DNA from: Synechococcales cyanobacterium S06
GTDB taxonomy: Bacteria; Cyanobacteriota; Cyanobacteriia; Cyanobacteriales; JAABRE01
Length of the DNA: 64,000 bases
Assembly: GCA_011391125.1 (NCBI GenBank)
Contig: JAABRE010000004.1
Coordinates: forward strand, 26,921 to 90,920
Direction: 5' to 3'
The notes beneath the pieces are model-generated. The model saw only the letters and a list, made by a program, of their open reading frames with translations, had not been told where the DNA came from and did not search any database. The position numbers and the translations under genes are program-made. This document shows, one piece after another, positions 1 through 42,377 of this stretch (positions are counted from its first letter, which is position 1; each line of letters starts with the position of its first letter).

Positions 1-48
1 GGTGGGCAATTAATTGAGCTTTTTTGTGATTGCTTAAATATTGTTTAA

Positions 49-336
49 TTGACCCTCACCCCCAACCCCTCTCCCGAAGGGTGAGGGGAGTCGGACTCCC
101 CCCTCTCTCTGAGAGAGAGGGGGGTTGGGGGGGTGAGGGTTTCATTGACCCTCACCCCCAACCCCTCTCCCGAAGGGTGAGGGGAGTCGGATGGGGGGTG
201 AGGGTTTCATTGGCCCTCACCCCCAACCCCTCTCCCGAAGGGTGAGGGGAGTCGGATGGGGGGTGAGGGTTTCATTGACCCTCACCCCCAACCACTCTCC
301 CGAAGGGTGAGGGGAGTCGGATGGGGGGTGAGGGGG
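49..336. repeat. Tandem array of G/C-rich palindromic elements. Type A is CCCTCACCCCCAACCCCTCTCCCGAAGGGTGAGGGGAGTCGG plus a GGTGAGGG tail. The first unit also carries the type B palindrome CCCCCCTCTCTCTGAGAGAGAGGGGGG.
   Basis: Read directly. CATTG(A/G)CCCTCACC restarts at 143, 208 and 273, a 65-bp period. The first composite unit is longer (49-144). The array is far more G/C-rich than the flanking AT-rich DNA. Confidence 0.9.
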
Positions 337-365
337 TAAATAACAATTAATTGTTATTTATTTTT

Positions 366-3300
366 TCAAAAATTTAGGTTTCTAAACGCATTTAAAGCAG
401 CTTGTTTCACCCCATCAGAAACGATGGGAAATGTGGTTAAAATGTGGCTAAATTCGGTTTCAGTTAACCCATATAATTTGGCACAGATTCCGTCAATTTC
501 GGCCCGAATTTTTGCCCTTTCTGACTCCCCCCTCTCTCTCAGAGAGAGGGGGGTTGGGGGGGTGAGGGAAGCAGCTAAATCTTCATATTCTGGACTTGTA
601 CAAATTAATTTGGCTGCCCTTTCTACTATTTCTTGAAAGTAAGGATCACCTTCTGTTAATCTTGGCACAGGAAGTTGATAAATATAAAACATATTAACGT
701 TAGTTGTGACTTTTTGACGCAAGGTAAAATCGACGATAAAACTATTAAGAATACCTTGTAAATAAAGCAATTCTAAACTCGATATTTGCTTAACTTCTGA
801 TAATACTAACAGGGAATTTCCACAGAAGATATTTTTAGGTAATATAGATGCAATTAATGTTTTTTCATTGGTATTACTTGCGATCGCTCTTATTCCCAAT
901 CTATAACATTGGTAATCTAAAATTTGGCCATTGTCAACTCCTTTTTTGCCTAATATTTTTTGTCTTCCTTCTTCTTCATCAATCCAATATTTAGGAGCAG
1001 CAAAATTATGGGTAAATTGATGAATCATTTTCCCTTCATAGAGAGGTAATCTTCCTTTTCCTGACTCAGTTTTAAACAATTTACTATCATTAGTCATGTC
1101 AAATTCACGAGTTAATTTTAAATTCCATTTCCCCTCAATTTGTGCTCCTAAAAGGGGAAACTGACTCATTTTTTGCGCTATTTCTATGTCTAACTCCGAC
1201 TTAAATTCCATTACTGAGAGAGAATCAGGAGACAATTTCTTGATTAAATCTAGGGAAATATTCAGGGTATTTTCATCAGGAAAACTAGCTAATTCTGACA
1301 CATCATGACGCATAAATTTAGCGGGAAAAGATTGAGTAACATATTCCCCTCCCCCTGTGGGAGAGGGGTTAGGGGTGAGGGCATATTCCCCTCCCCCTGT
1401 GGGAGAGGGGTTAGGGGTGAGGGCATTTTCAAAAGTTAACACCACAAATTTAAACCTACTATCCACACCTTCAAAAATAGCTTTCCTATTTTCAAAACAG
1501 AATAAACCCGTGATTTTGGTCTGGGAAAATAACATTTCTCGCAGTTGTTTTGTACCTAAATCCGTATAAATTCCGCTAGGGATGACTATACCACACTCGC
1601 CATTTTTTGCCAGTAAATTAACACATTGCTCCACAAATAACTTATATAAATTAATATCAGTGCCTTGTTTTTTACCATTTACCACTGATATTTGATTGCG
1701 GTATTGTTCCGCATTGCGATAATATAAACTAACGTGGGGATAATTACTTTGATATTCCTGCCAAGCTGCGGCGATTTCTGGATTTTCGAGTAACTTTTGC
1801 TGCTGTTTTTCAAAAGTCTTAATATCCATCTTATTTTTAGTAACTAAATCGCTATATTCGGCGAAAAATTCCTTAGCTTGGGGTTTAAAAATTTCCCAAG
1901 GTGGATTAGTTAAAATAATGTCAAAACCGCCTTTTTTCCCGATGATTTCATCAAAATGATAACCCCAATGGAAAGGTTTTAAATTTTCCATGTCTTTGAG
2001 GTTTAATAAACGTTTTTTTGCCTTACCTTTTAGTTGTGTTTCCTCATATTTAATGCCTAAGTTTTGACTAAATTCATCTAACAAAATTTGGTTAAGTTTA
2101 CTGATAGATTCTTGGTTAACTTGTTCGATGTGTTGACGTAACATTTGCAGTCGATCTTCCTGCTCTGTGCCTTCAATTGTTTCCGCTTTAAATGCGTGTT
2201 GTTTATATAATTGAATGCTCTTGTTTTTTTCTTTTAATATTCTTTGATATTCGGAAGCCGCCAACATCGGCAACAAACTCCCTTGTCCATTTGCCCTCAC
2301 CCCCAGCCCCTCTCCCACAGGGTAATTTGCCCTCACCCCCAACCCCTCTCCCACAGGGTGAGGGGAGTCGGATGGGGGGGTGAGGGTTTCATTAGGGTGA
2401 GGGGAGTCGGATGGGGGGGTGAGGGTCTGATTTGCCCCCAACCCTTCTCCCACGGGTGAGGGGAGTAAAGTTTCAAAGGAATTACCATCAATTTTAGTTA
2501 AACCGATTAAGGAATTACCGGCCATAATGTTAAAATCAATGTTAGGTAAAGGTTCTAAATCTGCCACTTTTTCGGCACTAGCAACTAAGCTTAAAAATAA
2601 CCTTAATTTGGCGATTTCCGTGGCTTCTTCCATGATATCTACACCGTATAAATTGTCAGTAATTACCCGTTTTTTTATGTAGTATTCTAAGGATGGATGC
2701 TGGTTTTTAATATTAGTTAGTCGGGTTTTATTCGCTTCATCGCCGTGGTGTTCAATCCAGTTAAAAACCTCGGTATAAATGTTAATTAAATGTTGCAAAG
2801 CAGCCACTAAAAACGCGCCACTTCCACAAGCTGGATCGAGAATTGTCAAATTAGGCAAGATTTCATCTAATAATTGATTTGCCCTCACCCCCAGCCCCTC
2901 TCCCGAAGGGTGATTTGCCCTCACCCCCAGCCCCTCTCCCACAGGGAGATTTGCCCTCACCCCCAGCCCCTCTCCCACAGGGTGATTTGCCCTCACCCCC
3001 AGCCCCTCTCCCACAGGGTGAGGGGAGTCGGACTCCCCCCTCTCTCTGAGAGAGAGGGGGGTTGGGGGGGTGAGGGCGGAAATATATTTATTAATGGTTT
3101 TTTCGCACAAATAATTAGTTATTTCTGGTTTGGTGTAGTATGCGCCAAAGGCTTTTTGGTTAATATACTTCTCAAAAATATACCCTAAAACATCGGGGTT
3201 AATTTCGTTATCTTTACCCGTGGGAGTGTCGTTTAAGTGCCAAGTATAGCTAGAGAATAGACGAAATATTGCTTTAAATGCAGAGTTGGCGATATTTATT

Positions 3301-4145
3301 TTGTTATATTTTAGCTCCATTTTATGGGGTAAAAATAAGCCACCGTTTAGATATTTAATGTTACCAACTAGGGCAATTGTTTCGGGTTTTCTGGCTTTTT
3401 CTGGCTTGGCGATCGCCTCAAACCAAAGGGTTTTCAAAAATTCATAAAAGTTAGCTTCGTTTTGCTTTAATTTGTCTTGTAAATAGTCGGTATTTCCGTT
3501 ATCTAAAAAGCCTTTTTTCTGGAGAAAATAGAGAAACATTAGACGATTGAGGATTACGGAAGCATACCAGTTTTTATCTTTTTCGTTGTCAATTCCCGTG
3601 ATAAAAATGACAAATTTTTTATGCTCTTGTTGGAATTCCTCGAAGAATTTTTTAGTGATTTTTTCGATGTCAAATGCTTTTTTGACCTTCGATGTTACCT
3701 GTAATAAAGTTAAGTGGTCTTCTTCGGCAAAGTCGATATAAATTTGCTCTAATTTTTGTAGCAATAATTCCCCAGTTTGTTTAATATTAAAGTTAGTTTC
3801 TCTGTTTTTTGAGGTTTTGTCACTTTCCTTATTTTGCCATTGCCAAATTTGCTTTTCTGAGGAGTTATCGGCATAAATGACAATATTTTCAAAGGAATGA
3901 CTACTAATTTCTGAGGCCAGATATTTGCGGGTTTTACTGTCAGGAAATATGCCATTTTCTGAGGTGCAATGATAAACGGTTAAACCTCTTTTTTGCGCTA
4001 CTGCTGTTAGATTGTAGCAATTATCATTATGTTTAATAACAAGGGAATCACTGTTAGGATTATCCCAACCTAATTCTTCAATAAACAGGGATTCAAAGTC
4101 GAACTTTTTCAGGTAATTTAAGGCATTTTGACGATTAATTTTCAT
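366..4145 (-). CDS. Eco57I/TaqI-like N6-adenine DNA methyltransferase with a C-terminal specificity region (methyltransferase 1). It carries four blocks of in-frame repeat insertions.
   Basis: Motif I is ILDPACGSGAFLV and motif IV is ILTNPPWEIFKP. It also has NIMAGNSLIG and a C-terminal LQGILNSFIVDFTLRQ...YIYQLPVP region typical of TaqI/Eco57I-type specificity domains. The N-terminus reads LFIEELGWD. The 1259-aa ORF is uninterrupted. Confidence 0.85.
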   Translation of the reverse strand: MKINRQNALNYLKKFDFESLFIEELGWDNPNSDSLVIKHNDNCYNLTAVAQKRGLTVYHCTSENGIFPDSKTRKYLASEISSHSFENIVIYADNSSEKQIWQWQNKESDKTSKNRETNFNIKQTGELLLQKLEQIYIDFAEEDHLTLLQVTSKVKKAFDIEKITKKFFEEFQQEHKKFVIFITGIDNEKDKNWYASVILNRLMFLYFLQKKGFLDNGNTDYLQDKLKQNEANFYEFLKTLWFEAIAKPEKARKPETIALVGNIKYLNGGLFLPHKMELKYNKINIANSAFKAIFRLFSSYTWHLNDTPTGKDNEINPDVLGYIFEKYINQKAFGAYYTKPEITNYLCEKTINKYISALTPPTPLSLRERGESDSPHPVGEGLGVRANHPVGEGLGVRANLPVGEGLGVRANHPSGEGLGVRANQLLDEILPNLTILDPACGSGAFLVAALQHLINIYTEVFNWIEHHGDEANKTRLTNIKNQHPSLEYYIKKRVITDNLYGVDIMEEATEIAKLRLFLSLVASAEKVADLEPLPNIDFNIMAGNSLIGLTKIDGNSFETLLPSPVGEGLGANQTLTPPSDSPHPNETLTPPSDSPHPVGEGLGVRANYPVGEGLGVRANGQGSLLPMLAASEYQRILKEKNKSIQLYKQHAFKAETIEGTEQEDRLQMLRQHIEQVNQESISKLNQILLDEFSQNLGIKYEETQLKGKAKKRLLNLKDMENLKPFHWGYHFDEIIGKKGGFDIILTNPPWEIFKPQAKEFFAEYSDLVTKNKMDIKTFEKQQQKLLENPEIAAAWQEYQSNYPHVSLYYRNAEQYRNQISVVNGKKQGTDINLYKLFVEQCVNLLAKNGECGIVIPSGIYTDLGTKQLREMLFSQTKITGLFCFENRKAIFEGVDSRFKFVVLTFENALTPNPSPTGGGEYALTPNPSPTGGGEYVTQSFPAKFMRHDVSELASFPDENTLNISLDLIKKLSPDSLSVMEFKSELDIEIAQKMSQFPLLGAQIEGKWNLKLTREFDMTNDSKLFKTESGKGRLPLYEGKMIHQFTHNFAAPKYWIDEEEGRQKILGKKGVDNGQILDYQCYRLGIRAIASNTNEKTLIASILPKNIFCGNSLLVLSEVKQISSLELLYLQGILNSFIVDFTLRQKVTTNVNMFYIYQLPVPRLTEGDPYFQEIVERAAKLICTSPEYEDLAASLTPPTPLSLRERGESERAKIRAEIDGICAKLYGLTETEFSHILTTFPIVSDGVKQAALNAFRNLNF
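523..568. repeat. Type B palindromic element inside the methyltransferase 1 CDS
   Basis: Sequence is GACTCCCCCCTCTCTCTCAGAGAGAGGGGGGTTGGGGGGGTGAGGG. It is translated in frame as LTPPTPLSLRERGES. Confidence 0.85.
1341..1424. repeat. Two tandem 42-bp type A-variant elements inside the methyltransferase 1 CDS
   Basis: ATATTCCCCTCCCCCTGTGGGAGAGGGGTTAGGGGTGAGGGC occurs twice, starting at 1341 and 1383. It is translated as ALTPNPSPTGGGEY twice. Confidence 0.9.
2289..2465. repeat. Cluster of type A elements and fragments (36-bp and 39-bp periods) inside the methyltransferase 1 CDS
   Basis: GCCCTCACCCCCA(G/A)CCCCTCTCCCACAGGGT starts at 2293 and 2329. GGGTGAGGGGAGTCGGATGGGGGGGTGAGGGT occurs twice with a 39-bp period. 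The translation is PVGEGLGVRAN-type repeats. Confidence 0.85.
2877..3077. repeat. Four tandem 36-bp type A units followed by one type B palindrome, inside the methyltransferase 1 CDS just upstream of motif I
   Basis: GCCCTCACCC starts at 2881, 2917, 2953 and 2989, an exact 36-bp period. CCCCCCTCTCTCTGAGAGAGAGGGGGG follows. The translation is HPVGEGLGVRAN four times, then SLRERG. Confidence 0.9.
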
Positions 4146-4156
4146 GGTTTTTGTTC

Positions 4157-4534
4157 TTATTTTTTGAGATAATCATTAGCAAAATTAAAGAATTCTTCGG
4201 CTTTAGCTATTTGTATTTTAACTTGTGATGCTTCAATAATATTAATATCACCATAGTCACCTAAATGGCGTAAATCTTGGGCTTGTTTTAAGTATTGATG
4301 ATATTTTCTGGGTACTAAATCTGTTTTAGCAAATTCACGACCAAAAGCAGAAATTACAGCAGAATGTTTAGAAAAGCCAAGGTTTTTACTAGCTAAAAAA
4401 GCCGATGCTAGATAAAACATTGTATAGTAAGCTCTGGCTACGGCAAAATCAGGATAACCTCCTTCTAGTAACAATTTTGATGCAGCTAAACTTTGTTGAG
4501 CTTTAATAATTAGATGTTCTATATCTTCATTCAT
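4157..4534 (-). CDS. HEPN domain protein, the putative toxin of an MNT-HEPN pair
   Basis: 125 aa with AQDLRHLGDYGD, a HEPN-type R...Y motif near the C-terminal third. It overlaps the upstream MNT gene by 4 nt (ATGA). Confidence 0.7.
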   Translation of the reverse strand: MNEDIEHLIIKAQQSLAASKLLLEGGYPDFAVARAYYTMFYLASAFLASKNLGFSKHSAVISAFGREFAKTDLVPRKYHQYLKQAQDLRHLGDYGDINIIEASQVKIQIAKAEEFFNFANDYLKK

Positions 4535-4857
4535 AATAAGATTCCATCTTTTTTGATATTTTTTATTAGTGGTTTATTCTCTTGGTTAAGTTTTGATTCT
4601 GAGAGATAAAAACAATTAATTAAAGCCTCATATTTTAAACACATTTCACTGATTAAATAGCTATTTTTCGTTATTTCTTCCACGGGGTTAACGTCATCTT
4701 TTAATACTACTAATATATCAATATCAGAGTCTGGTTGAGCATCTCCTCTAGCCTGTGAACCAAACAAAATTAATTTGCTTAATCTTTCTTGATAAATTAA
4801 GTTAAACTCTTTTTTTACTTCTTCAGTAATAGATTTTATTGTTTGATTAGCTGTCAT
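4531..4857 (-). CDS. Minimal nucleotidyltransferase (MNT), the putative antitoxin of an MNT-HEPN pair
   Basis: LFGSQARGDAQPDSDIDILVV matches the GSxxRG...DxD nucleotidyltransferase signature. 108 aa. Confidence 0.8.
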   Translation of the reverse strand: MTANQTIKSITEEVKKEFNLIYQERLSKLILFGSQARGDAQPDSDIDILVVLKDDVNPVEEITKNSYLISEMCLKYEALINCFYLSESKLNQENKPLIKNIKKDGILL

Positions 4858-4878
4858 TTTTTTACCCCTTTTTATTTG

Positions 4879-7800
4879 TTAATTATTAATTGTAAATAAT
4901 CCCAATGAACAAATTATTTGTGCTTCTCTGAGTTCATCTTCTGGATTTATTATACAAAGTCCGTTGTTTTCTCGCAAGGTTATTACTATTTTTGCCAATT
5001 CTTCGTTGCTCAAATTTTTGCCACGTTGTTTGTTTAATCTGGCGATCGCAGTCTGTTTTAAGGGATAATTATAAATTTCTTCAACCGCTTGACAAAGATT
5101 TTCCCAGTCGTTACCCTGGGCTAAAATTGGCGTTTTTGTTTCAATCCATTGCAGGTAGTTTTTTAGTTGTTGGTAGGTCCTCGCTCTTGCGCCTTTAGCA
5201 TTGCCTAAACGCCCGCCGAGGCTTTTTTGCTGTTTTTGGATAAATTCAGACCCTAATGCCACTAATTCGTGGTGTTGGGGATGTTTTTGGATGGGGGATG
5301 CATCCCTCGCACAGGCTGCCAGCCGCAAAATCCGCGTTTGCGATTGGGTGACACTTTGGCCTTTTTCGTCTATCCACGCCAACGCGTCTGTACCTTCGGG
5401 TGTTCTCAAATACATCAATACCCCTTGGGGATCAATATCTGTGCCTTGATGATTACGGGTGCTATAGCTGACATTGGGTAGGTTTTCAATGATGGTTTTG
5501 AGGGAAGGATCAGATGCGATCGCATTTTGCCAAATTTGCCAAGCTTCGGAGATAAAATCCACTGACTGTTGGTCTTCTTCGTCTAAAATGCCAGATTTTT
5601 CGTGGTATAAATCGAGGATTAACTGAGGGGAAATGTCCTCAAAAAATACCTCGTCGGTGCCAACTACTTCGGCGTTTTGTTGGAGGCGATCGCTTAATCT
5701 ACCTCGTAAATTAATTAAGTTTTCGACTCCTTCTGCGGGTAAAAAGGAGTAACACAAAATTTCAGGAGCGTTTTGACCAATTCTATCAACTCTGCCCGCT
5801 CTTTGGATTAATCGAATAATTGCCCAAGGAAGATCATAGTTAACAATAATATGACAATCCTGTAAGTTTTGACCTTCACTTAAAACATCGGTGGCAATTA
5901 AAATTCTTAATTCATTTTCTGGGGCAATTTTAGCTTCTTTTTTGTTACTTTTAGGACTAAAACGAGCCGCTAATTCGGTGGGATTATTGCTGTTTCCTGT
6001 GACACTTTCCAGGTTAGCAATTCCTTGGTTTTCCAAGGCTTTTTTTAAGTAGTGAGTGGTGTCAGCAAATTGGGTAAAAATTAGGACTTTATCTTGGCAA
6101 TGTTGGCCTTTTAAAAGTTCACTTAAAGCTAACAATTTTTGGTCTTGTTTTTCCTCCCAATTGCCACAATCTTGCAAAAGATTAATTAAATTTTGGGCAT
6201 CTGCTCGTAAATCTTTGAATAAATTTTTAGTAAATAAATCACTCCTTAACCATTTAAAACGTTTGGGATATTTATTTGCGTAGATTTCATAGACTTTAGC
6301 CGCTTGTTTTTGGTACTCTTTTTCTGTCTTTAAAAGGCTGTTAGCTTCTAGGCTGCTTGTTTTATCGTCATTTTCTGAATTATCATCTTCCCAAGTTACA
6401 CTATTAATAGAATCGGTATCTTCATCATTATTAAGAGTATCTAAAAAGCCTAAATCCTGTGTACCAATGGGAATTTCTAAGTTATTTTTTAGGGCATAAA
6501 TGTAAATATAATTCCGTAAAATATGGCGCTCTAAGGATTGAATGAAAGCAAAGCCACTACTTTCTAATCGTTTAAATAAATTGGTGCGACAAAATCCCAT
6601 TAAACGACGACCTGCTCTTGATAAATTACTCAGTTGTTTCTGCTCAGCCTCGGTTAAATTTTTAGGTTTCTTTTCCACTTGATAATTTCCTAAACCATAG
6701 CGAGGTAATTTGAGATTATTAATAATATTAATTACCTCTTCTGAATATAATCTGCTGTAAATATCAGATTGAGGGTTTTTAACGGGAAATTTAATGGTTT
6801 TGGGAATCCGTAAAGGAAAATAAGACCGACTTCCATCGGGAAATTCTAAATAAATACGCCCAGTTAGGTCATCTTTTTTGGCGTAATTTTGTTTGATAAA
6901 ACTCCTAGTTCGTCTTACCATATAATGACTCATTAATTGTTGCCAATCTTCTGAATATTCGCTCTTTTCAAAGGCTGCAATTGACCGAATCTGAGTTTGA
7001 GGAAATTGTTGAATGAAACTTTTTTCTTGACGGCTTAAATACTGGATTAATGCGTCAGGTTTAATGCCTAAATCTTTGTCTTCTGGGATAAATAAACGTA
7101 GTTGTGCGGATAAATCTAAGTAGTTTTTATTATAGGGGGTTGCTGTTAGTAAGATACAACGACTATCACTTTCTTCAATGTATTGTTTAATTGCTGCATA
7201 ACGTTGTCCTTCTTTGTTTCTTAAATTATGACTTTCGTCGATTAATACTAATCTAAATCGAGCGGGAATATTGCCCAATTCTTTTGTTACCATACTGAAG
7301 GGAATTACTTTACCTCTTAATCCATATTCTGCGACATAATTTTCCCACATTAAGACTAAGTTTTTTGGACAAATAATTAAGGTGCTAAAACCGAAATCTT
7401 CTTCACAAATTCTTGCTATTGCTGTCCCTATCAATGTTTTCCCCAAACCTACTACATCTCCTACTATTACTCCCCCTCTTTTATTAACATGATTGGTGGC
7501 AATTTTTACTGCTAATTCTTGAAATTCAAATAGCTTAAATTCATCTGGTATCTGATATTGATTTAATCCGTCTCTTGCTTCTTGGGATAAATGATAGGCC
7601 ATTTTTAAATAGATATAATAGGGCGGAATTAGGTCTTCTCTAGCCCAACTTTCATCTATTATTGTGATTAATTCTTGGGAAATATCTAAGCAAAATTTAT
7701 CTGACCACATTTCGTTAAACCAATTTTGTAATTTGGCTGTAGCATCGTGTTCAAGCACGTCTATGTTTAATTCTCCCTGTTTTAAGAGGCCAGATAAGGT

Positions 7801-8289
7801 TAAATTACTACTTCCTAAAAAGGCTATCATTGGTAAATTGATTTGATGTTGGGGTATTAAATAAAGTTTACCATGCAAGGGATTTCTTAAATATAATTTA
7901 ACTACTAATTTTTTATTAAGCAATTGTTTTTTTAATTGTTGCAGATACAATTCATCCCGATTATTAGGACATCCTAATATTAATTGCCGACGAAATTCTT
8001 GGGCTACTTTTTTCTTAATTTTTTGAGCCTCATTTTGATCTATTTTGCGGTTTTCTTTTTCTAAACTTAGTGCCTTATATAGTTGATCTTTTTCCAGTTT
8101 TTGCATCCCAATTAATAACCGACAACAGTTATTTTCTCCCCCACTAAACTGCTCGATTTCTTCACTAATTAATTGCCATCCCCTTAAGTTAAAATAACCG
8201 ACACAAAAATCGGCGCTTTTGGCATTTTGTAAACTATGTTTTAGTGTCTCTAATAGCTGTTGGTTAATATTGTCAAAAATGCGTGGCAT
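4879..8289 (-). CDS. Fusion of an N-terminal PLD-family (HKD) nuclease domain with an SNF2/SF2 helicase
   Basis: HKD motif: LHGKLYLI...FLGSSNLTLSGL. Helicase motif I is GDVVGLGKTLIG, motif II is LIDESHNLRN and motif VI is QRAGRVDRIGQ. 1136 aa. The stop codon lies 21 bp from the MNT start. Confidence 0.85.
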   Translation of the reverse strand: MPRIFDNINQQLLETLKHSLQNAKSADFCVGYFNLRGWQLISEEIEQFSGGENNCCRLLIGMQKLEKDQLYKALSLEKENRKIDQNEAQKIKKKVAQEFRRQLILGCPNNRDELYLQQLKKQLLNKKLVVKLYLRNPLHGKLYLIPQHQINLPMIAFLGSSNLTLSGLLKQGELNIDVLEHDATAKLQNWFNEMWSDKFCLDISQELITIIDESWAREDLIPPYYIYLKMAYHLSQEARDGLNQYQIPDEFKLFEFQELAVKIATNHVNKRGGVIVGDVVGLGKTLIGTAIARICEEDFGFSTLIICPKNLVLMWENYVAEYGLRGKVIPFSMVTKELGNIPARFRLVLIDESHNLRNKEGQRYAAIKQYIEESDSRCILLTATPYNKNYLDLSAQLRLFIPEDKDLGIKPDALIQYLSRQEKSFIQQFPQTQIRSIAAFEKSEYSEDWQQLMSHYMVRRTRSFIKQNYAKKDDLTGRIYLEFPDGSRSYFPLRIPKTIKFPVKNPQSDIYSRLYSEEVINIINNLKLPRYGLGNYQVEKKPKNLTEAEQKQLSNLSRAGRRLMGFCRTNLFKRLESSGFAFIQSLERHILRNYIYIYALKNNLEIPIGTQDLGFLDTLNNDEDTDSINSVTWEDDNSENDDKTSSLEANSLLKTEKEYQKQAAKVYEIYANKYPKRFKWLRSDLFTKNLFKDLRADAQNLINLLQDCGNWEEKQDQKLLALSELLKGQHCQDKVLIFTQFADTTHYLKKALENQGIANLESVTGNSNNPTELAARFSPKSNKKEAKIAPENELRILIATDVLSEGQNLQDCHIIVNYDLPWAIIRLIQRAGRVDRIGQNAPEILCYSFLPAEGVENLINLRGRLSDRLQQNAEVVGTDEVFFEDISPQLILDLYHEKSGILDEEDQQSVDFISEAWQIWQNAIASDPSLKTIIENLPNVSYSTRNHQGTDIDPQGVLMYLRTPEGTDALAWIDEKGQSVTQSQTRILRLAACARDASPIQKHPQHHELVALGSEFIQKQQKSLGGRLGNAKGARARTYQQLKNYLQWIETKTPILAQGNDWENLCQAVEEIYNYPLKQTAIARLNKQRGKNLSNEELAKIVITLRENNGLCIINPEDELREAQIICSLGLFTINN

Positions 8290-8320
8290 AATCTATTTTT
8301 CTCTTCTTAAATTATAGTAA

Positions 8321-8378
8321 GGTGGGCAATTCTCAAGAAATTATCCTTTTAAAATTAATTTGCTTAAATTGCCCACTC
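8321..8378. repeat. Small hairpin element with GGTGGGCAATT / AATTGCCCAC termini
   Basis: Terminal inverted repeats read directly. Related copies lie at 1-50, 59221-59264 and inside a CDS at 45098-45235. It sits between the lgt stop and the helicase start. Confidence 0.7.
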
Positions 8379-8425
8379 TAACTATATTAGCGCTAAAGGG
8401 CAACAAAGAGCGCTGGCATTTTTGT

Positions 8426-9241
8426 TTATTTTGCCAAAGGCTTGTTCAGCACATACAACCAAAATAAGCCGAAAATGCCAAGGGCGATCGCCCCTAAGCT
8501 GACCATTTGTGCCATTTTTACGGGTCCGAACATCAAACTATCGGTGCGTAAAGCTTCAATCCAAACTCGGCCGCAACTATAAGCAATTAAATAAACAAAA
8601 GTTAGGGTGCCAATTTTTAACTTATTTGTATTCTTTAATCCCCAAAAAAATAAGCCAATTAATAAGGCAAAAACTCCTAAATTCCAGATAGATTCATACA
8701 AAAAAGTCGGATGAAAATACTGCTCATTAATGTAGGCTAAAGGGCGATTCATCGGCGGAATATATAACTTCCAAGGGAGATTTGTGGGAGCTCCAAATGC
8801 TTCTGAATTGAAAAAGTTTCCCCAACGACCAATTGCTTGCCCTAATATTAATCCTGGTGTCATTAAATCTGCCAATTCCCAAAAAGAAATCCGATTTAAA
8901 CGCGCAAAAATTAAGCCCGCTAAACTGCCACCAATAAGCGCTCCATGGATTGCAATTCCACCTTTCCAAATGGCTATAATATCCTGTGGATGTTGAGCAT
9001 AACTTTGCCATTCAAAGGCAACATAATAAATTCTAGCACCAAGAATAGCCGCAATTACTGCCCAAATGATAAAATCAGCAATTAAGTTTGGATCGAAATT
9101 TCGACGTTGGGCTAAATTTTGCGCTAAAGTCAGACCAATTAATAAGGCTGATGCAATCAATAAACCATACCAACGTATTTGGATTAATCCTAAATCTAAC
9201 AAAATCGGACCAGGAGATTGAAATTGAAAAGCGATAATCAT
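8426..9241 (-). CDS. lgt: Prolipoprotein diacylglyceryl transferase
   Basis: Polytopic membrane protein with [13 protein letters not shown] and the IRWYGLL Lgt signatures. 271 aa. Confidence 0.9.
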
Positions 9242-9246
9242 GTCTT

Positions 9247-9274
9247 AGTTACCAGTTACCAGTTGTCAGTTATT
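9247..9274. repeat. Heptanucleotide tandem repeat (AGTTACC-type, 4 units) abutting the lgt start codon
   Basis: AGTTACC AGTTACC AGTTGTC AGTTATT, read directly. Confidence 0.8.
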
Positions 9275-9377
9275 AATGATTATAGTCAACCACTAAAGTT
9301 AAATTTCATTAAATTATTACCTTTTTTACTCTAATTTGCGATAAAAATAGTTATGTAAAAAAAGAACATGATTGATA

Positions 9378-9698
9378 ATGGCTAAATATTTTTTAATCGA
9401 GTCGCGAAGTCCCTTTGATTCTCCTGAAGTTAACAACAATTATCAGTTGGCTTTAGATTTAGCTAATGGTGGTAATCAGGTAACATTATTTTTGGTGGAA
9501 AATGGCGTTTTTGTTGCTAGGAAAACGGCACAAACTGAAAGTTTAGATAAGTTAACCAATCTAACTTTGTTAGCTGACGATTTCTCCTTGCGCGAAAGGG
9601 GAATTTCTACCGATGAAATCAAAAATAATATTAAAGTTGTTGAGATTAGCTCTGTTGTAGAAGCGATGGCAACAGGGACAAAAACTATGTGGTTATAG
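9378..9698 (+). CDS. DsrE/DsrF-like sulfur-relay family protein
   Basis: MAKYFLIESRSPFDS...VTLFLVENGV resembles the DsrE/TusD fold family. It is first of three adjacent small paralogous genes. I prefer the ATG at 9378 over the TTG at 9372. Confidence 0.5.
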   Translation: MAKYFLIESRSPFDSPEVNNNYQLALDLANGGNQVTLFLVENGVFVARKTAQTESLDKLTNLTLLADDFSLRERGISTDEIKNNIKVVEISSVVEAMATGTKTMWL

Positions 9699-9713
9699 GG
9701 AGATATAAATTTA

Positions 9714-10121
9714 ATGAGCGATACTACTTTAACTTTTTTAATTATGGATGCTCCTTTTGAACAAGCGCGCACAACTACCGCTTTTAGAATGATGGAAGCG
9801 GCTTTAGAAAAGGGCTACAATGTCAATGTTTTTGCCTATGAAGGGGGCGTTTCTCTCTCTTTTGCTTTACAACAACCCCACGCAAATGCGGTCCATGGGC
9901 GCACTTTTGAGGAGGAACAACACCCTTTGACTAGGGAATGGATTGCCGCTTTGCATAAAAAAGCTCAAGAAAAAGGGCTTGTTTTTGATTGGGTCAATTG
10001 TGGACTTTGTGTGGATGAACGCGGGGTCAATGAGGCCATTGACGGTTGTCGTCGCGGTGGACCACGGGATTTCTTAGGGTGGGCTAATCAATCTAATAGT
10101 TTGGTAATTGGTACAAGATAG
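9714..10121 (+). CDS. DsrE-like sulfur-relay family protein
   Basis: LTFLIMDAPFEQ...NVNVFAYEGGV, with a Cys-containing NCGLCVDERG segment reminiscent of the DsrE/TusD active-site region. Confidence 0.55.
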   Translation: MSDTTLTFLIMDAPFEQARTTTAFRMMEAALEKGYNVNVFAYEGGVSLSFALQQPHANAVHGRTFEEEQHPLTREWIAALHKKAQEKGLVFDWVNCGLCVDERGVNEAIDGCRRGGPRDFLGWANQSNSLVIGTR

Positions 10122-10131
10122 GAGAACATTG

Positions 10132-10512
10132 ATGAAAGCTTTACAAATTATACAGTCTGGCTATCGTTGTACTATTGAAGAACAAGACGATCCAGTTATC
10201 TGGTTTATTCAAGTTTTGAAAACTGCTGAAGGTGAGGTGGATATTGTTCTTAGAGGCAATGCTGTTAATTATGCAGTCATTAGTCAAGATGCTTCGGGTT
10301 TGAGTTTTGGTACTTGGACACAAACTCAACCCAGTAAGATGGATCAAGATTTACAACAGGCTATTGATCAGGGTATCACTGTTTATGCGATCGCTGAAGA
10401 TATAGCCATTAGAGGTATTCCCGAAAGTAAATTATTAACTGGAATTAAGCAAATTTCTCGCTTAGAATTTGCCAATTTATTTAATAATTATGACCAAGTT
10501 TGGACTTGGTAA
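10132..10512 (+). CDS. DsrH/DsrF-like small protein, third member of the putative sulfur-relay trio
   Basis: The ATG at 10132 is preceded by AGGAGA. Size and position match a TusB/DsrH-like third subunit. No strong motif was seen. Confidence 0.4.
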   Translation: MKALQIIQSGYRCTIEEQDDPVIWFIQVLKTAEGEVDIVLRGNAVNYAVISQDASGLSFGTWTQTQPSKMDQDLQQAIDQGITVYAIAEDIAIRGIPESKLLTGIKQISRLEFANLFNNYDQVWTW

Positions 10513-10600
10513 TTAACAATTAATAATTGACAATCATCGTTGTTGCGCTTTAGGTCTATCTGCTTGAAGGGCAACAACGGGATATTTTTAAAATCGTTAA

Positions 10601-10799
10601 TTAGGGTTTACGGAAAAAAGCTGACAGCTATGTAGATCAATACTTTCAAGTTGGTGGGACTTGAATTAAGGGCAAGGATTTCAACAAATAATCGTAAAAA
10701 ACCTTACATTTACGGGGATTAATCAAGATTTTTGCTCCTCAAAAGACCCGGTCAAACTATCAACTCGCCCTCACCAGCCCTTTATTCAGCAAACCCTAA
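10601..10799. mobile_element. MITE-like element with TTAGGGTTT / AAACCCTAA termini
   Basis: The left end is TTAGGGTTTACGG and the right end is CAGCAAACCCTAA. Its first ~132 bp recur at 14799-14930 with high identity. No ORF is present. Confidence 0.65.
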
Positions 10800-10802
10800 T
10801 TA

Positions 10803-12287
10803 TTAAATGTCTAATAGGTTATATTTTTCCTGAAAAGATAATAGTTTTATCCTCGCTTCTCCGGCGTTATCTGCTAAATCTGCAAACTCGACAAAGCGTT
10901 TTAATTCCTTTTTTAAAAGGTTTTTTTCTATTTGCCAAGTATCGCGATCTAATTCCGGCGGCATAACAATCATATCAAATAAAGTGGCTCTATTTTTATC
11001 AGGATGGGGGCGTAAAATTCGCCCGCGACGCTGGATAAATTGCCGAGGATTTCCTGTGCTGGCTAAAATTACGGCATTTTTAATGGCAGGAATATCAATT
11101 CCTTCATCTAAACAGCGAATTGCGACTAAACCTTGTAAGTCTCCATTTTCAAATTGTATCCTCATATTTTCCCGCTCATTTAAGTTAGTTTCTGCGGTAT
11201 AAATATTAACTCGATAGCCCAATTCTTTCCCTAAAATACGGGTAACTTCTGTTATTTGACGTTTATATGCAGTATCTTCTCCTGCTACATTTCCATCACC
11301 ACAATAAAATAAGGTATGGGAGGTGTTTAACCTAGTTTCCATTAACTCTTTTAAGACTTCTAATTTATTATGTGCCGCTCCAATTAAACGCGCTCTTTTC
11401 ATTAATAATGAGGTTAAATTATCGTTATTTTCTAATTTAGTTGACTTATTTAATGCCCAACCAATTTTCTGGGTTAATTTGGCATAATTGTAACTTTCTC
11501 CTTGGGTTAAATTTACCAGTATGGGATAATATAAATAATGGACTAATGCGCCTTTATTGATAGCATCAGCTAGGGTAAATTCTGGTTGCAAAATATCACC
11601 AAAATACTGGAATAAATTATCTGTACCTTCTTCGTCAAAATACCTTTCTGGTGTCGCGGATAGGGCTAATCTTAAGCCAATATTGCGGGGTAAACTTGCT
11701 TCTAAACGAGGTGAACCTAAGTTGTGTGCTTCGTCACCAATGATTAAACTTTTCGCCGGAAAAAACTTTAATTGGGATTGAAAACTGTCACTAATTAAGG
11801 TGGAATTGGTGGTAATTACTGTTAAAAATTTCTGCTGATTACTGCGAATATTATACAATTGTGTCGATAAATTATCATGCCAATTATTAACATTTTCAAA
11901 GGCTAAAATCGCTTGTAAATTAAATTTTTCGCATTCTCTCCCCCACTGGGTAACTAAATGGCGAAAGGGACAAATTATAAGCAGGACTTTTAATTCAATT
12001 TGCTGGTAAAGTTCGGAAGCGATGGCCAATCCAATGATAGTTTTACCACTGCCGGTGGCCATTTTTAAGGTGCCTCTACCTTTGTTTTTCAACCAATTTA
12101 CCACCGCAGTTTTTTGATAATCTCGAAGTTGAATATTCGCCGGAATTTGGGGATAATTTTCCTTTTTTGTGTGATAAAAGACCTGGTTTTCAGATACTTT
12201 TAAAACAGTCTTAGATTTAAGATATTCTTGGGCTATTTTGTCCCAATTAATATCTAAATTTTCCTCGGTTTTATTAAGAAAATACAT
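10803..12287 (-). CDS. Superfamily 2 DEAD/DEAH-box helicase (ResIII/SSL2-like)
   Basis: Motif I is MATGSGKT, motif II is IGDEAHNLG, followed by SATPER, and motif VI is QRRGRILR. Confidence 0.8.
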   Translation of the reverse strand: MYFLNKTEENLDINWDKIAQEYLKSKTVLKVSENQVFYHTKKENYPQIPANIQLRDYQKTAVVNWLKNKGRGTLKMATGSGKTIIGLAIASELYQQIELKVLLIICPFRHLVTQWGRECEKFNLQAILAFENVNNWHDNLSTQLYNIRSNQQKFLTVITTNSTLISDSFQSQLKFFPAKSLIIGDEAHNLGSPRLEASLPRNIGLRLALSATPERYFDEEGTDNLFQYFGDILQPEFTLADAINKGALVHYLYYPILVNLTQGESYNYAKLTQKIGWALNKSTKLENNDNLTSLLMKRARLIGAAHNKLEVLKELMETRLNTSHTLFYCGDGNVAGEDTAYKRQITEVTRILGKELGYRVNIYTAETNLNERENMRIQFENGDLQGLVAIRCLDEGIDIPAIKNAVILASTGNPRQFIQRRGRILRPHPDKNRATLFDMIVMPPELDRDTWQIEKNLLKKELKRFVEFADLADNAGEARIKLLSFQEKYNLLDI

Positions 12288-12353
12288 AATCTCAAATAAT
12301 TAAAATATCCTAAATTTTTAGGATAACAAAAAATAAAAGCGATGAGACCAGAA

Positions 12354-13643
12354 TTAATTGATTGCGAGAGGAGCAAAGACAGTTAAACTGTCAGGAATAC
12401 ATTTAATTTCTATGGGAGTTGTGCCAATAATTTCCCCATCTATAACCACTTTTTGCGGTGGATTTGTGCTTACTTTGATTTTTTCAGTACGTAAACAAAT
12501 TAAATCTTCTCTATTAGTGGGAGTTTTGACTAAAGCGGAAGTAAAAAGACTCGCGAGGGCTTGAATTGCCTGTAATGGTGTTTTACTGGTAGCGATGGTA
12601 ATGTCTAATAAACCATCATTGAAGTTCACATCACCTGAACCTTGAGCTAAAACCGAGGTTGGTGGAGCTGCATTAGCGATAGTAATACCATTAGTCTGCA
12701 TTTTAGTAACTTTAGAATCAATTTCGATGGTGGTTTCAAATAATTCTTGTTCCTGAATTTGCTGAAAGCCTGCAAATATATAAGCAAGAATACCTAAACG
12801 ATTTTTCATTTCTCGGTCAGCTTTGTCGATGGTTTCTGCGCCAAAACCGATACCGGCAATTAATAACATGGAAATATCATTACAAAGGGCTGTATCAACA
12901 ACTTTTGTTGCCCCCCTACGAATAGTCTCACAAGCTCCTTGAATCTGAGTAGGAATACCTAAAGCCACAGAAAAAGAATTAGCTGTACCTCTGGGGATAA
13001 TTCCGAGAGGAATTTTCGTGCCAATGACAGATCTGGCAACTTCCGAAACTGTACCATCTCCACCGGAAGCAATAATAAAATTATCTTCTTGTTGAGCTGA
13101 AGTTTGGATTTGGGCGATAATTTTTTCGACTTGGCTAGTGACACTAAGATCAGCACGAGTAAAGATCACATTCAGGTGAATATCTGGCTGAAGAAAATTT
13201 CTAATTAAATCCAGTTCTTGATCAGGATTACCTTGGCCGGCCACGGGATTAAAGATTAAATGGCCAATTCTAGTTTTACCTAATAAATGAATAATAGCAA
13301 ATGCGGTGGCTAAATTAGTTGCCAAGGGTACATTATAAACCTCACAAATGCGCAATAAAGCCTTAATATCAGGTTCGTGGGGTTGAGCATATAAGGGATC
13401 AATCAAAAAAATAACGGCGGTAATTTCGCCCTTAACGATTTGAGCTGCAATTTGTGTATCTCCTCCGAATGGTCCAGAGGCCATTTTTTCCACTTCTAAA
13501 CCGGTTTCCTGTTCGATTTTTTGCCCTGTTGTACCAGTAGCAATCAGATGATAACGGGAAAAAATAGAAATGTATTGTTTCACAAAATTAACAAGATCAT
13601 TTTTCTTGTTATCATGGGCAATTAAAGCTATATTTGTTGGCAT
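12354..13643 (-). CDS. Fusion of methylglyoxal synthase-like and diacylglycerol/lipid kinase (YegS-like) domains
   Basis: The N-terminal ~125 aa read IALIAHDNKKNDLV...LIATGTTG...PHEPD (MGS-like). The C-terminal part has ASGGDGTVSEV and IIPRGTANSF (DAGK catalytic domain). Confidence 0.75.
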   Translation of the reverse strand: MPTNIALIAHDNKKNDLVNFVKQYISIFSRYHLIATGTTGQKIEQETGLEVEKMASGPFGGDTQIAAQIVKGEITAVIFLIDPLYAQPHEPDIKALLRICEVYNVPLATNLATAFAIIHLLGKTRIGHLIFNPVAGQGNPDQELDLIRNFLQPDIHLNVIFTRADLSVTSQVEKIIAQIQTSAQQEDNFIIASGGDGTVSEVARSVIGTKIPLGIIPRGTANSFSVALGIPTQIQGACETIRRGATKVVDTALCNDISMLLIAGIGFGAETIDKADREMKNRLGILAYIFAGFQQIQEQELFETTIEIDSKVTKMQTNGITIANAAPPTSVLAQGSGDVNFNDGLLDITIATSKTPLQAIQALASLFTSALVKTPTNREDLICLRTEKIKVSTNPPQKVVIDGEIIGTTPIEIKCIPDSLTVFAPLAIN

Positions 13644-13697
13644 TTTAGTTCTTAATTATTAATTATTTTCAATTATATTGTAGATGGAGATAAATAT

Positions 13698-14570
13698 CTA
13701 ACAGATTGATCTTCTTTTGATCAGAGAGTTTAGGTCAATCTTACCTATTTCTAAAAGGGTCGATATTTTTAGGGATACTTGAGTAAGATTAAATTTTTGT
13801 TGTAAATTGGTTTCTATTATTTGGGGCGAAAATGTGGGTTTAACTAATAAATTTACGGTGAGAATATTTTGGTTTAATTCTAAGTTTTCAATCTGGATAA
13901 TCTCAGGTAAATTCCTTAAATATGTTTCAATATCTGTTTTTTTATCTAATAATTTATGACAACTTTTGATAATTAAAGGAATAGCAGTTAAACCAATTAA
14001 AATTGCCACAAATAAACTAATAATAGTATCAGCCCAATAAAAGTTAAATAACCAGATAGATAAAGCCGCTATAATTACCCCAATTGAGCTAATTATATCT
14101 CCAATAATATGTAAAAAAGCCCCTTGTAAATTGAGATCATTTTGACTATCTTTATGCAAGATAAAAGCATTAATTCCATTAATAATTAAACCTAATAAAG
14201 CGGTAATTAACATGGGAAAACTGACTATTTCCGTAGGAGGATGTTGTAAATGTTTGCTCCCTTCCCAAATAATTAAACCTCCCATAGTAAACAATCCTAA
14301 CCCATTAATTAAAGCAGCTACTATTTCAATTTTACTATTAATAAAAACTCTTTTACTAGCCATCCAACTAGCTAACACAGCCAAAATTAAGGCCAAACTA
14401 TCAGAAATTGTATGACCAGATTCCGCTTTTAAAGCTAAACTATGGGTAGATAAAGCTACCATAAATTCCACTACAGAAAATCCACTAATTAAAATTAAAG
14501 TAGTCAATAAAAGCCGAATTTTGGGGTTTTGATGGGTTTGATAACAGTTGGTATTTTGACAATCTAACAT
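13698..14570 (-). CDS. Cation diffusion facilitator family transporter (CzcD-like)
   Basis: Six predicted TM segments with HTISDSLALI and HIIGDIISSIGV metal-site motifs. Confidence 0.8.
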   Translation of the reverse strand: MLDCQNTNCYQTHQNPKIRLLLTTLILISGFSVVEFMVALSTHSLALKAESGHTISDSLALILAVLASWMASKRVFINSKIEIVAALINGLGLFTMGGLIIWEGSKHLQHPPTEIVSFPMLITALLGLIINGINAFILHKDSQNDLNLQGAFLHIIGDIISSIGVIIAALSIWLFNFYWADTIISLFVAILIGLTAIPLIIKSCHKLLDKKTDIETYLRNLPEIIQIENLELNQNILTVNLLVKPTFSPQIIETNLQQKFNLTQVSLKISTLLEIGKIDLNSLIKRRSIC

Positions 14571-14715
14571 TAAGGATACTTAAATAATTTTTACTTTCAA
14601 AAGTGTGCTAATTTGTATTATCATTATTATAAATCAAAAATAAACGGCTCTCTCAACATCTTGTGGAATAATCTATATTATATTACAAATACTGTAGGGG
14701 TGAACGGCCGTATTT

Positions 14716-14750
14716 CAGTTATCAGTTATCAGTTATCAGTTATCAGTTAA
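14716..14750. repeat. Heptanucleotide tandem repeat CAGTTAT x4 plus CAGTTAA
   Basis: Read directly. Confidence 0.9.
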
Positions 14751-14798
14751 CAACTTTTAAGTCAGTGAGTTAATAGTTATTCTCCTCTTACTTCTTAC

Positions 14799-14930
14799 TT
14801 AGGGTTTACTGAAAAAAGCTAACAGCCATGTAGATCAACATTTTCAAGTTAGTTGGACTTGAATTAAGTGCAAGGATTTCAACAAATAATAGTAAAAAAC
14901 CTTACATTTACGGGGATTAATCAAGATTTT
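14799..14930. repeat. Second copy of the left ~132 bp of the TTAGGGTTT element
   Basis: Aligns by eye to 10601-10733 with few mismatches, for example ...CTTGAATTAAG(G/T)GCAAGGATTTCAACAAATAAT.... Confidence 0.8.
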
Positions 14931-15065
14931 GGCGTTGCATGACTCTGAGATGAAATTGTAGGGGCAATCCCTTGTGGTTGCCCCCGAAACGCTGATAGGG
15001 TAGGGACAAGCCCTACCCCTACATTGAAAATAAATATCAAATCATCTTGCATAGGTGCAACGCCA
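14931..15065. repeat. Inverted-repeat-bounded insert (GGCGTTGCA ... TGCAACGCC) with internal G/C hairpins
   Basis: The 9-bp terminal inverted repeat is perfect. Internal hairpins are GTAGGGGCAATCCCTTGTGGTTGCCCCC and GGGTAGGGACAAGCCCTACCC. It sits where the 14799 copy diverges from the 10601 copy. Confidence 0.6.
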
Positions 15066-15106
15066 AACCTATTACCTAATTACCATTATTGGCGATTTGT
15101 CTATTG

Positions 15107-42249: not shown

Positions 42250-42377
42250 TTACGCTTCGAGGACAAAGGCGCTAAGGGGTTGATCTGTTGGCTGTTTAGT
42301 TCTGGGTTTCTTTCTCACGCAAAGGCGCTAAGGCGCAAAGGGGTTGATCTGTGGGCTGTTTAGGCCTCGGTTTCTTT
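42250..42377. repeat. Tandem 64-bp duplication containing the CGC(A/T)...AAGGCGCTAAGG...GGGGTTGATCTGT repeat. The second copy includes the last codons and the stop of methyltransferase 3.
   Basis: GGGGTTGATCTGT occurs at 42276 and 42340, and GCTGTTTAG at 42291 and 42355. Related CACGCAAAG...GCGCAAAGG copies lie at 23183-23215, 31095-31140 and 34592-34632. Confidence 0.8.

Follow-up and report, generated by a model that had tools for sequence, protein, structure and literature searches.

The 64,000-nt stretch of DNA analysed here (Synechococcales cyanobacterium S06, contig JAABRE010000004.1, positions 26,921 to 90,920; hereafter the window) carries on its minus strand the genes of a PLD(HKD)-Snf2 helicase-nuclease (HEL) and of an N6-adenine methyltransferase (MT), with genes for a minimal nucleotidyltransferase (MNT) and a HEPN protein between them. 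We hold with moderate confidence that the locus is a two-component, ATP-dependent defence system resembling restriction-modification (R-M), accompanied by a toxin–antitoxin (TA) passenger. HEL and MT are an almost obligately adjacent two-gene core. The MNT-HEPN pair is an interchangeable passenger, neither unusual nor integral, because the slot between HEL and MT is empty in most relatives and its contents differ between loci. The HEL-MT pair is a widespread, little-studied R-M variant and not a new kind of system.

The two-gene core is seen in the linkage of HEL and MT across genomes. A metagenome scan anchored on the conserved N-terminal half of MT gave 80 loci. In 67 of them MT is directly preceded, on the same strand, by a full-length homologue of HEL (about 45-60% identity); the gap between the genes is at most 200 bp in 49 of these 67 loci, with a median of about 27 bp, and the other 18 have an insert of 236-2092 bp. 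Four loci show other orders (MT then HEL, or convergent). Four loci with less than 260 bp of upstream sequence are uninformative, and in four more the 0.8-1.35 kb available upstream has no HEL fragment, so that an insert is indistinguishable from absence. One locus has 10 kb of upstream sequence without HEL, its contig stopping 363 bp past MT. HEL is present in 71 of the 72 clearly informative MT-anchored loci, or in 71 of 76 in the worst case. When the search was anchored on HEL, MT adjoined it in all five informative genome loci, one of them a Poribacteria relative with 28% identity, and in all ten informative viral-contig loci from IMG/VR, with gaps of 3-36 bp. The helicase and the methyltransferase had been proposed as a linked R-M-like pair in an earlier annotation made from the letters of the window (hereafter the original prediction), and this part of it is supported by the linkage counts.

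The pair is found in Cyanobacteria, Bacteroidota and Actinomycetota, and homologues are annotated from Verrucomicrobiota, Nitrospirota, Acidobacteriota and Desulfuromonadales, with a distant relative in Poribacteria and with copies on plasmids and predicted (pro)viral contigs. Carriers include Runella rosea, Nodularia, a stromatolite metagenome, Synechocystis pSYSX and the Rhodococcus plasmid pR8C1, where the two genes overlap by 4 nt; 52 plasmid records carry the pair. Clustering of the flanking open reading frames (ORFs) of at least 80 aa in about 80 loci revealed no conserved third gene, and upstream of the pair nothing is conserved. No fusion of HEL and MT was found in any locus.

In the window, the ORF list gives four closely packed minus-strand ORFs between 366 and 8289 (Table 1). 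HEL and MNT are separated by 21 bp (4858-4878), MNT and HEPN overlap by 4 nt (4531-4534), and HEPN and MT are separated by 11 bp (4146-4156); HEL and MT are two separate ORFs 734 bp apart. Since the HEL and MT ORFs are long, their domain matches strong and exact copies of both are held in the public protein collection, they are real genes and not chance ORFs. The packing and spacings described in the original prediction are borne out by these coordinates, the HEL and MT motifs quoted there are all found in the translations, and its domain assignments (PLDc, SNF2/ResIII, Helicase_C, NTP_transf_2, HEPN and Eco57I) agree with Pfam. Scans of the region for promoters and terminators gave counts equal to chance expectation, and a single transcript is neither favoured nor disfavoured by them.

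Table 1. Coordinates in the window of the four genes, of the domains of HEL and MT, and of the repeat inserts in MT
Feature	Position	Strand	Description
HEL	4879-8289	-	1136 aa; PLD(HKD)-Snf2 helicase-nuclease; predicted restriction subunit
HEL residues 91-202	7684-8019	-	single PLD/HKD nuclease domain; H139, K141, GSSNLT 159-164
HEL residues 255-838	5776-7527	-	Snf2-type ATPase core with long helical insert; GLGKT, DESH, QRAGRVDRIGQ
HEL residues 905-1136	4882-5577	-	conserved C-terminal domain, no family match
MNT	4531-4857	-	108 aa; minimal nucleotidyltransferase; predicted antitoxin; passenger cargo
HEPN (PF05168 type)	4157-4534	-	125 aa; predicted toxin; passenger cargo
MT	366-4145	-	1259 aa; MmeI/Eco57I-like gamma-class N6-adenine methyltransferase with specificity region; predicted modification/target-recognition subunit
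MT residues 1-135	3741-4145	-	N-terminal alpha/beta domain specific to the family; not catalytic; proposed to serve docking/activation of HEL
MT residues 140-355	3081-3728	-	helical spacer (DUF7814/MmeI_hel); terminates in near-invariant NPDVLGYIFEKYINQK..GAYYT block
MT residues 426-905	1431-2870	-	methyltransferase core; motif I DPACGSGAFLV 2805-2837, motif IV NPPW 1896-1907
MT residues 940-1259	369-1328	-	C-terminal specificity region; weak TaqI_C match (0.016)
23-nt repeat inserts in MT	1340-3074		in-frame; tandem arrays 1340-1430, 2289-2359 and 2875-3021 with flanking copies

HEL combines one HKD nuclease half-site with a motor predicted from its sequence to be an Snf2 double-stranded DNA (dsDNA) translocase. 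It matches the Pfam families PLDc_2 (3.7e-9), RE_NgoFVII (3e-7), SNF2-rel_dom (1.1e-12), ResIII (4e-8) and Helicase_C (2.2e-16), and its translation contains HGKLYLI (139-145), GSSNLT (159-164), GLGKT (281-285), DESH (351-354) and QRAGRVDRIGQ (829-839). In an alignment of 81 sequences H139, K141, S160-T164, the Walker A residues G281-T285, the DESH box D351-H354 and motif VI are invariant. The AlphaFold model of HEL has a mean predicted local distance difference test (pLDDT) score of 74, and its best matches in the PDB are the Swi2/Snf2 ATPases SWR1, SRCAP, RapA and CSB (E about 1e-14). The C-terminal part of about 230 residues (905-1136) has no Pfam match at E values of up to 10. Homologues conserve it from end to end: their tblastn matches extend to residue 1131 or further, and invariant residues are present. 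The closest homologues of HEL are found in Nostocales, with 65-67% identity. PLD nucleases assemble one active site from two HKD motifs. There is only one HxK...GSSN motif in each HEL chain, therefore two HEL chains must cooperate. Dimers of BfiI, SauUSI and MtsD illustrate how a PLD active site is formed by two chains (bioRxiv 10.64898/2026.09.23.753747). Fusions of HKD and SWI2/SNF2 modules in R-M contexts have been known through comparative genomics since 2006 (cited in PMC3417536).

MNT and HEPN have the layout of a type VII TA module: both Pfam matches are above their cut-offs (NTP_transf_2 1.8e-12 for MNT, HEPN 8e-17 for HEPN) and MNT lies upstream of HEPN in a tight dyad. The GSx(n)DxD motif of MNT is intact (GSQARGDAQPDSDID); its score against the NCBIfam MntA model (NF047752), 36.8 bits, is below the cut-off of 60. 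HEPN reads RHLGDY in place of the canonical Rx4-6H and there is no H at +5 to +7. Note that HEPNs of the PF05168 type often deviate from this motif (PMC3710099, Table 1). The best sigma-70-like match of the region (11 of 12 positions; 5068-5095, minus strand) falls within the 3' part of the HEL gene, some 190 bp before MNT, and could be a candidate promoter of the TA cassette itself.

The slot between HEL and MT is empty in 49 of the 67 metagenome loci and also in close HEL relatives of the window (66-67% identity). Its contents elsewhere are diverse. In various metagenome loci it holds PIN, DUF29 with PIN, zeta toxin, AbiEi/AbiEii, DUF433, DUF3800, Uma2 or Bro-N genes; in Prochloron and Geminocystis PemK/MazF; in Runella YhcG/DUF1016; in Synechocystis pSYSX DUF2281 and PIN (VapBC-like). 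In Trichothermofontia two DUF29 genes and a PIN gene occupy the slot and two MNT-HepT pairs lie past MT, and in Dolichospermum a lone MNT is found in the gene order MT, MNT, HEL. The original prediction took the four genes as a single system with an unusual architecture. Neither claim is supported: MNT-HEPN is one of many cargoes, and R-M operons with HEPN or other toxin genes inside them are on record, with a PrrC-like 'second line' model already proposed for them (PMC3710099). An insertion hotspot inside a Snf2-nuclease defence operon (hmaABC) has been described as well (PMC11232893). The likeness of our locus to these operons, PrrC in EcoPrrI included, is the toxin module inside a restriction operon; the difference is that the MNT-HEPN cargo is interchangeable between loci.

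An integrated four-gene system would work differently. In that case the R-M proteins would silence MNT-HEPN, which would be released as an abortive infection (Abi) back-up once restriction is blocked by a phage, as with PrrC/EcoPrrI. The tight packing leaves no space for terminators, the slot repeatedly draws toxin or Abi genes, as in 18 of the 67 metagenome loci and in most of those from cyanobacteria, clustering of PF05168 HEPN genes with R-M operons has been described and a PrrC-like model put forward (PMC3710099), and MNT matches the PADLOC defence candidate PDC-S09 at 9.5e-41. We nevertheless find such integration unlikely, as the slot is so often empty, also in the close relatives, and the cargo families (PIN, PemK, zeta, AbiE, DUF29, YhcG, Uma2, DUF3800) are mutually unrelated and therefore no specific protein contact can be conserved. 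TA genes are also found just outside the pair (the immediate flanking ORFs were inspected by eye only), and the HEPN lacks the canonical Rx4-6H. A tentative idea, to which we give a small chance, is that swappable toxin and Abi modules (MNT-HEPN, PIN, PemK, zeta, AbiE, YhcG and others) have a privileged docking site in the gap between HEL and MT, and that the N-terminal half of MT, which resembles a dead nuclease, is a universal adaptor which lets any specificity half drive one generic PLD-Snf2 motor. If this is true, the promoter of the R-M operon would tie toxin dosage to the R-M state, and the result would be a modular two-layer immunity, first restriction and then suicide, like PrrC/EcoPrrI but with swappable second layers.

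Within the system, sequence specificity has a single module, which lies in MT together with the adenine-N6 methyltransferase. MT matches Pfam Eco57I at 1e-22 (81.4 bits, cut-off 25.3) and MmeI_Mtase at 1.3e-10 (41.4 bits, cut-off 27); MmeI_hel (1.2e-4, 23.3 bits) is below its cut-off of 27, and DUF7814 is matched too. Motif I (DPACGSGAFLV, 437-447) precedes motif IV (NPPW, 747-750) and the specificity region follows at the C-terminus, the order typical of the gamma class. The specificity region was originally described as TaqI/Eco57I-like; this is not supported, as only a weak TaqI_C match (E 0.016) is found there. Residues 958-1255 match the C-terminal part of TIGR02987 (Alw26I family) with 133.8 bits, the cut-off being 353.5. 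Searches of the PDB with the single MT sequence gave no match, and a profile search gave only the MmeI structure 5hr4 at a marginal E of 0.017.

The N-terminal domain of MT, residues 1-135, is modelled by AlphaFold 2 as a confident alpha/beta fold, with pLDDT exceeding 90 for most of the first 100 residues. Proteins with this domain form 907 clusters at 50% identity; among the 150 matches listed, 148 have it no more than about 30 residues from the protein N-terminus, and none of these best 150 matches is long enough to be a fusion with HEL. The invariant residues are only L12, F21, L25, W27, P68, W101, W103 and K131. No acidic, histidine or D...ExK-type residue of residues 1-135 is conserved across 29-118 homologues, no nuclease family is matched even at E up to 1, and no Pfam family is matched consistently. 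We read this domain as a non-catalytic module, judging from the conservation pattern; it is possibly derived from a nuclease fold. This supports the original prediction, in which MT has no nuclease domain of its own. A 1050-aa representative protein (P0382) has four separate matches to the same domain, for example at residues 627-719, which suggests that it may be built from repeats of it.

If the N-terminus of MT did cut DNA, MT would be a self-sufficient type IIG/IIL enzyme like MmeI or Cj0031, and HEL an accessory or independent defence gene. PADLOC files MT as REase_MTase_IIG (PDLC03628, 9.3e-133) with a match that includes residues 1-355, and the MmeI_hel and MmeI_Mtase matches agree with this label. 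The N-terminal domain has an alpha-beta-beta-beta-alpha-beta order in the predicted model, weak HSDR_N similarity was noted for the related protein Slr6050 (PMC6105098), and the solitary relative Cj0031 (cited in PMC9881135) restricts phages by a factor of 5 to 1000 (PMC4889913). We consider a self-sufficient MT quite improbable. The missing catalytic residues make the type IIG label doubtful, and no nuclease family is recognized in the domain. A nuclease domain with catalytic residues in the same chain is expected of type IIG/IIL enzymes and is not seen in MT. The layout of helical spacer, methyltransferase and C-terminal specificity region is common to MT, MmeI, Eco57I and Cj0031; MmeI and Cj0031 need no helicase-nuclease partner, whereas MT is nearly always paired with one. 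Such near-obligate adjacency, with a gap of 3-36 bp, is unexpected for an accessory gene. Moreover, an internal deletion in a fused enzyme would abolish cutting and methylation together and ought to segregate, in contrast to the slr6050 knockout (PMC6105098).

With MT as the recognition subunit of the two-component system, its specificity can be followed by comparing relatives. There are at least two MT classes, that of the window and that of Slr6050; residues 1-550 are common to them and the C-terminal halves are unrelated. The partner HELs are equally similar across both classes (mean identity 54.5% and 54.7%). Therefore specificity resides in MT, with HEL interchangeable, which argues that MT directs HEL and that HEL has no sequence recognition of its own. 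Even the HELs most similar to that of the window (65-67% identity) have partners from the other MT class, which implies a swap of whole specificity halves. Hypervariability of the target recognition domain (TRD) was also considered and was set aside: within MTs of the window class the C-terminal region is only moderately less conserved, and the clear signal is the replacement of the C-terminal half between classes.

A member of the family is found in a model organism. Plasmid pSYSX of Synechocystis sp. PCC 6803 carries a helicase gene (43696-47151), an antitoxin-like DUF2281 gene, a PIN toxin gene and slr6050 (47827-51129). Its HEL has 57% identity to that of the window over the full length, and the N-terminal half of its MT, Slr6050, has 39%. 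Gene order is the same as in the window and a TA pair occupies the slot, which makes it a true family member; it differs in being plasmid-borne, in having DUF2281 and PIN instead of MNT-HEPN in the slot, and in its unrelated MT C-terminal half, so that its specificity differs. After slr6050 follow a ThiF/E2/multiubiquitin cluster and then a helix-turn-helix (HTH) and ImmA/IrrE metallopeptidase pair. Hagemann et al. described slr6050 as M.Ssp6803IV and tentatively assigned to it the asymmetric motif GA(m6)AGGC; the knockout never segregated and the gene was called essential (PMC6105098). Slr6050 was treated there as an orphan methylase and the neighbouring helicase was not mentioned (PMC6105098); in the literature searched we found no mention of slr6047. 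A methylase that cannot be deleted is expected if a cognate restriction activity is present, which lends the two-component reading indirect support; the reported need for slr6050 may reflect protection of the genome against the adjacent PLD-Snf2 nuclease.

Several points weigh against a two-component system. The proposed interaction between HEL and MT is deduced from gene linkage. The PADLOC model that files MT as a type IIG restriction-and-modification enzyme is derived from REBASE, and the related Cj0031 restricts phage by itself (PMC4889913). The MT of the window contains about 180 extra residues derived from repeats, so its activity is not guaranteed. As to slr6050, its assignment to GAAGGC is itself tentative, and if MT is required to direct HEL to its targets, the situation in types I and III, full loss of MT should be harmless. 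A knockout that does not segregate therefore needs partial loss of MT in a polyploid cell, or a HEL that acts without MT.

Known systems resemble the pair only in part. In the model libraries scanned (PADLOC and NCBIfam), only MT is given a system name, that of a type IIG enzyme, and HEL receives no named system. The best PADLOC model for HEL is C3a139 ('HKD+Snf2'). We took it at first as the Gao_RL/MANTIS helicase; this was ruled out, as the name derives from a survey of accessory genes adjoining type III CRISPR cassettes (PMC6546367). The view of the pair as a split type ISP enzyme proved to be a fair functional analogy: LlaGI and LlaBIII likewise combine a nuclease, a superfamily 2 (SF2) dsDNA translocase, a gamma-class adenine methylase and a TRD. 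However, type ISP enzymes are one polypeptide and HEL-MT activities are split over two, their nuclease is of the Mrr-type PD-(D/E)XK fold and that of HEL is PLDc_2/RE_NgoFVII, and the HEL motor belongs to the Snf2 family; PDB searches with MT gave no match to type ISP structures. Type ISP enzymes are known to hemimethylate their sites and to converge by motor action before they cleave (PMC7049714), and by analogy this would hold for HEL-MT. Type III systems have a beta-class Mod and a Res with C-terminal PD-(D/E)XK, whereas here MT is gamma-class and the PLD domain of HEL is N-terminal.

The closest system in effector architecture is MANTIS/Gao_RL (BREX-related type 2, MtsA-MtsB-MtsC-MtsD). 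In both MtsD and HEL an HKD/PLD nuclease at the N-terminus is joined to an SF2 ATPase of the Swi2/Snf2 type, a likeness at the level of architecture only, and hemimethylated asymmetric sites and a PLD dimer forming one active site (bioRxiv 10.64898/2026.09.23.753747; PMC12839542) would be further common points. MANTIS requires the DUF499 AAA+ loader MtsA and the DUF3780 protein MtsB; its methylase is of the DUF1156 type with the TRD nested in the core, whereas MT is MmeI/Eco57I-like with C-terminal specificity and an N-terminal domain of its own, and has no DUF1156 match in Pfam. Class 1 DISARM shares with our locus a Snf2 helicase (DrmD), a PLD protein (DrmC) and a large adenine methylase (DrmMI); in HEL, PLD and Snf2 are fused.

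Could the locus then be a reduced or variant class 1 DISARM (DrmD, DrmMI and DrmC) or a relative of BREX-related type 2/MANTIS (HKD-Snf2 MtsD and a methylase)? Partial PADLOC/NCBIfam matches to DrmD (9e-32; 142 bits) and DrmMI (3e-26) and the HKD-plus-SF2 architecture of MtsD (PMC12839542; bioRxiv 10.64898/2026.09.23.753747) point that way, but the DrmD score (NF038317; 142.1 bits) is far from the cut-off of 610 and that of the BREX protein PglX (NF033452; 53.4 bits) from 500. The window, as far as its first base, and about 80 related loci showed no DrmA/DrmB (DUF1998), DUF499, DUF3780, PglZ or BrxC partner, as expected from the original prediction with regard to the DISARM core, nor any other conserved third gene. 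Together with the MmeI/Eco57I-like and not DUF1156-type MT and the origin of C3a139 outside DISARM and Gao_RL (PMC6546367), this makes such a variant very unlikely. That HEL is a modification-dependent type IV enzyme functionally unrelated to MT, as SauUSI, which couples a PLD nuclease with an SF2 motor (cited in bioRxiv 10.64898/2026.09.23.753747), might suggest, or that the pair serves epigenetic regulation or repair, given the 'essential' M.Ssp6803IV handled as an orphan methylase (PMC6105098), is highly improbable. A type IV enzyme would defeat itself beside a methylase that is active, unless the two had different specificities. In HEL no recognition domain is variable, and the contexts are those of defence and mobility (52 plasmid records, (pro)viral contigs, nearby CBASS, GmrSD and TA genes).

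For the two-component system, the observed domain content, conservation and linkage lead us to infer the following course of events. MT would bind a short asymmetric site and methylate one strand, by which self DNA is marked. At an unmethylated site MT would recruit or license HEL through its non-catalytic N-terminal half, the C-terminal domain of HEL, or both. HEL would then move along dsDNA by ATP hydrolysis, and two HEL chains, as a dimer or after a collision between sites, would build one PLD active site and cut both strands. Type III, type ISP and MANTIS prefer two unmodified inverted sites, and because the mark would be hemimethylation the same preference is expected here. MNT-HEPN would be a separately acquired type VII-like TA cassette, inserted in the inter-gene slot and co-transcribed, most likely an addiction element or an independent Abi module; a regulatory tie to the R-M proteins is possible. 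We found no functional study of the HEL-MT pair as a system in the literature searched. The pair has been noticed incidentally, with DUF1016 in front at one locus of the list (PMC9881135, Table 3).

The MT gene of the window has been invaded by repeats. Its ORF is about 130-190 aa longer than many homologues due to insertion of a GC-rich 23-nt repeat, CCCTCACCCCCAACCCCTCTCCC. There are 14 copies of the repeat in the window, 12 of them at 53-3012 and 8 within MT. The tandem units inside MT are 36, 36 and 42 bp long and the arrays encode VGEGLGVRAN, ALTPNPSPTGGGEY and related peptides; these inserts are not present in homologues. Downstream of MT a non-coding array (128-334) has a period of 65 bp. 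All coding arrays are multiples of three, which suggests selection on the frame, and thus the MT gene is probably still in use. The two remaining copies (42983-43005 and 43859-43881) are inside a 650-aa ORF at 42360-44312 on the minus strand. Elhai and colleagues reportedly described, in 2008, small mobile repeats in cyanobacterial genomes, and the 23-nt repeat resembles these.

Regarding the genes around the pair, the window has lgt and DsrE/DsrH genes, a housekeeping context, upstream of HEL (Pfam, window neighbours), and only 365 bp of sequence past the end of MT. A dedicated search for a small gene just upstream of HEL found none that is conserved, only sporadic regulators, and none at all in the window. 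Where such regulator genes occur in relatives, they are 7-36 bp upstream of HEL and reminiscent of R-M controller proteins and of MANTIS MtsR: XRE-HTH genes (82 aa, confirmed by Pfam) in three Nostocales loci, and genes that look RHH/CopG-like by eye in the stromatolite locus (80 aa) and in Synechocystis (67 aa). Downstream of MT some neighbours are optional: 14 of 46 loci have an ABC-type ATPase gene (AAA_15/AAA_21) there, and DUF4276 and DprA-like genes occur in 6 and 8 loci, respectively (examples of downstream neighbours: 14634-16277 in locus L089, 5520-6185 in L026 and 13295-13954 in L076); they may be accessory or back-up effectors. In Runella rosea (5573-15778) HEL, YhcG/DUF1016, MT as two ORFs (518 and 860 aa) and a GmrSD type IV enzyme form, in this order, a compact defence island, and the second MT ORF (860 aa) has an SLFN/AlbA_2 match. 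In Nodularia (14352-17000) a CBASS-like pair (a DncV-like nucleotidyltransferase and HNH-SAVED) and an EVE-domain gene are directly downstream of HEL-MT. Westiellopsis prolifica has the HEL-MT locus on two contigs of one assembly, with MT split over two frames near residues 364/371, either a pseudogene or a sequencing error. A plasmid of Thermococcus profundus (1-10342) carries an archaeal HEL-like gene with 29-30% identity over residues 4-879; an AbiEii toxin gene precedes it and a large DNA methyltransferase is encoded about 4 kb upstream. The arrangement may be a distant archaeal version of the pair.

The results lead to the following view of the family. HEL and MT define a minimal two-gene, helicase-coupled R-M-like module, which is common, as the 907 clusters of its signature domain indicate. 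The reading of MNT-HEPN is corrected from an integral component to one cargo among many in a recurrent slot. Compared with MANTIS, DISARM and BREX, the pair is a simpler system in which to study how unmodified sites pass from a methylase to a motor-nuclease, and it gives a possible explanation for an unexplained result in a model organism, the 'essentiality' of slr6050.

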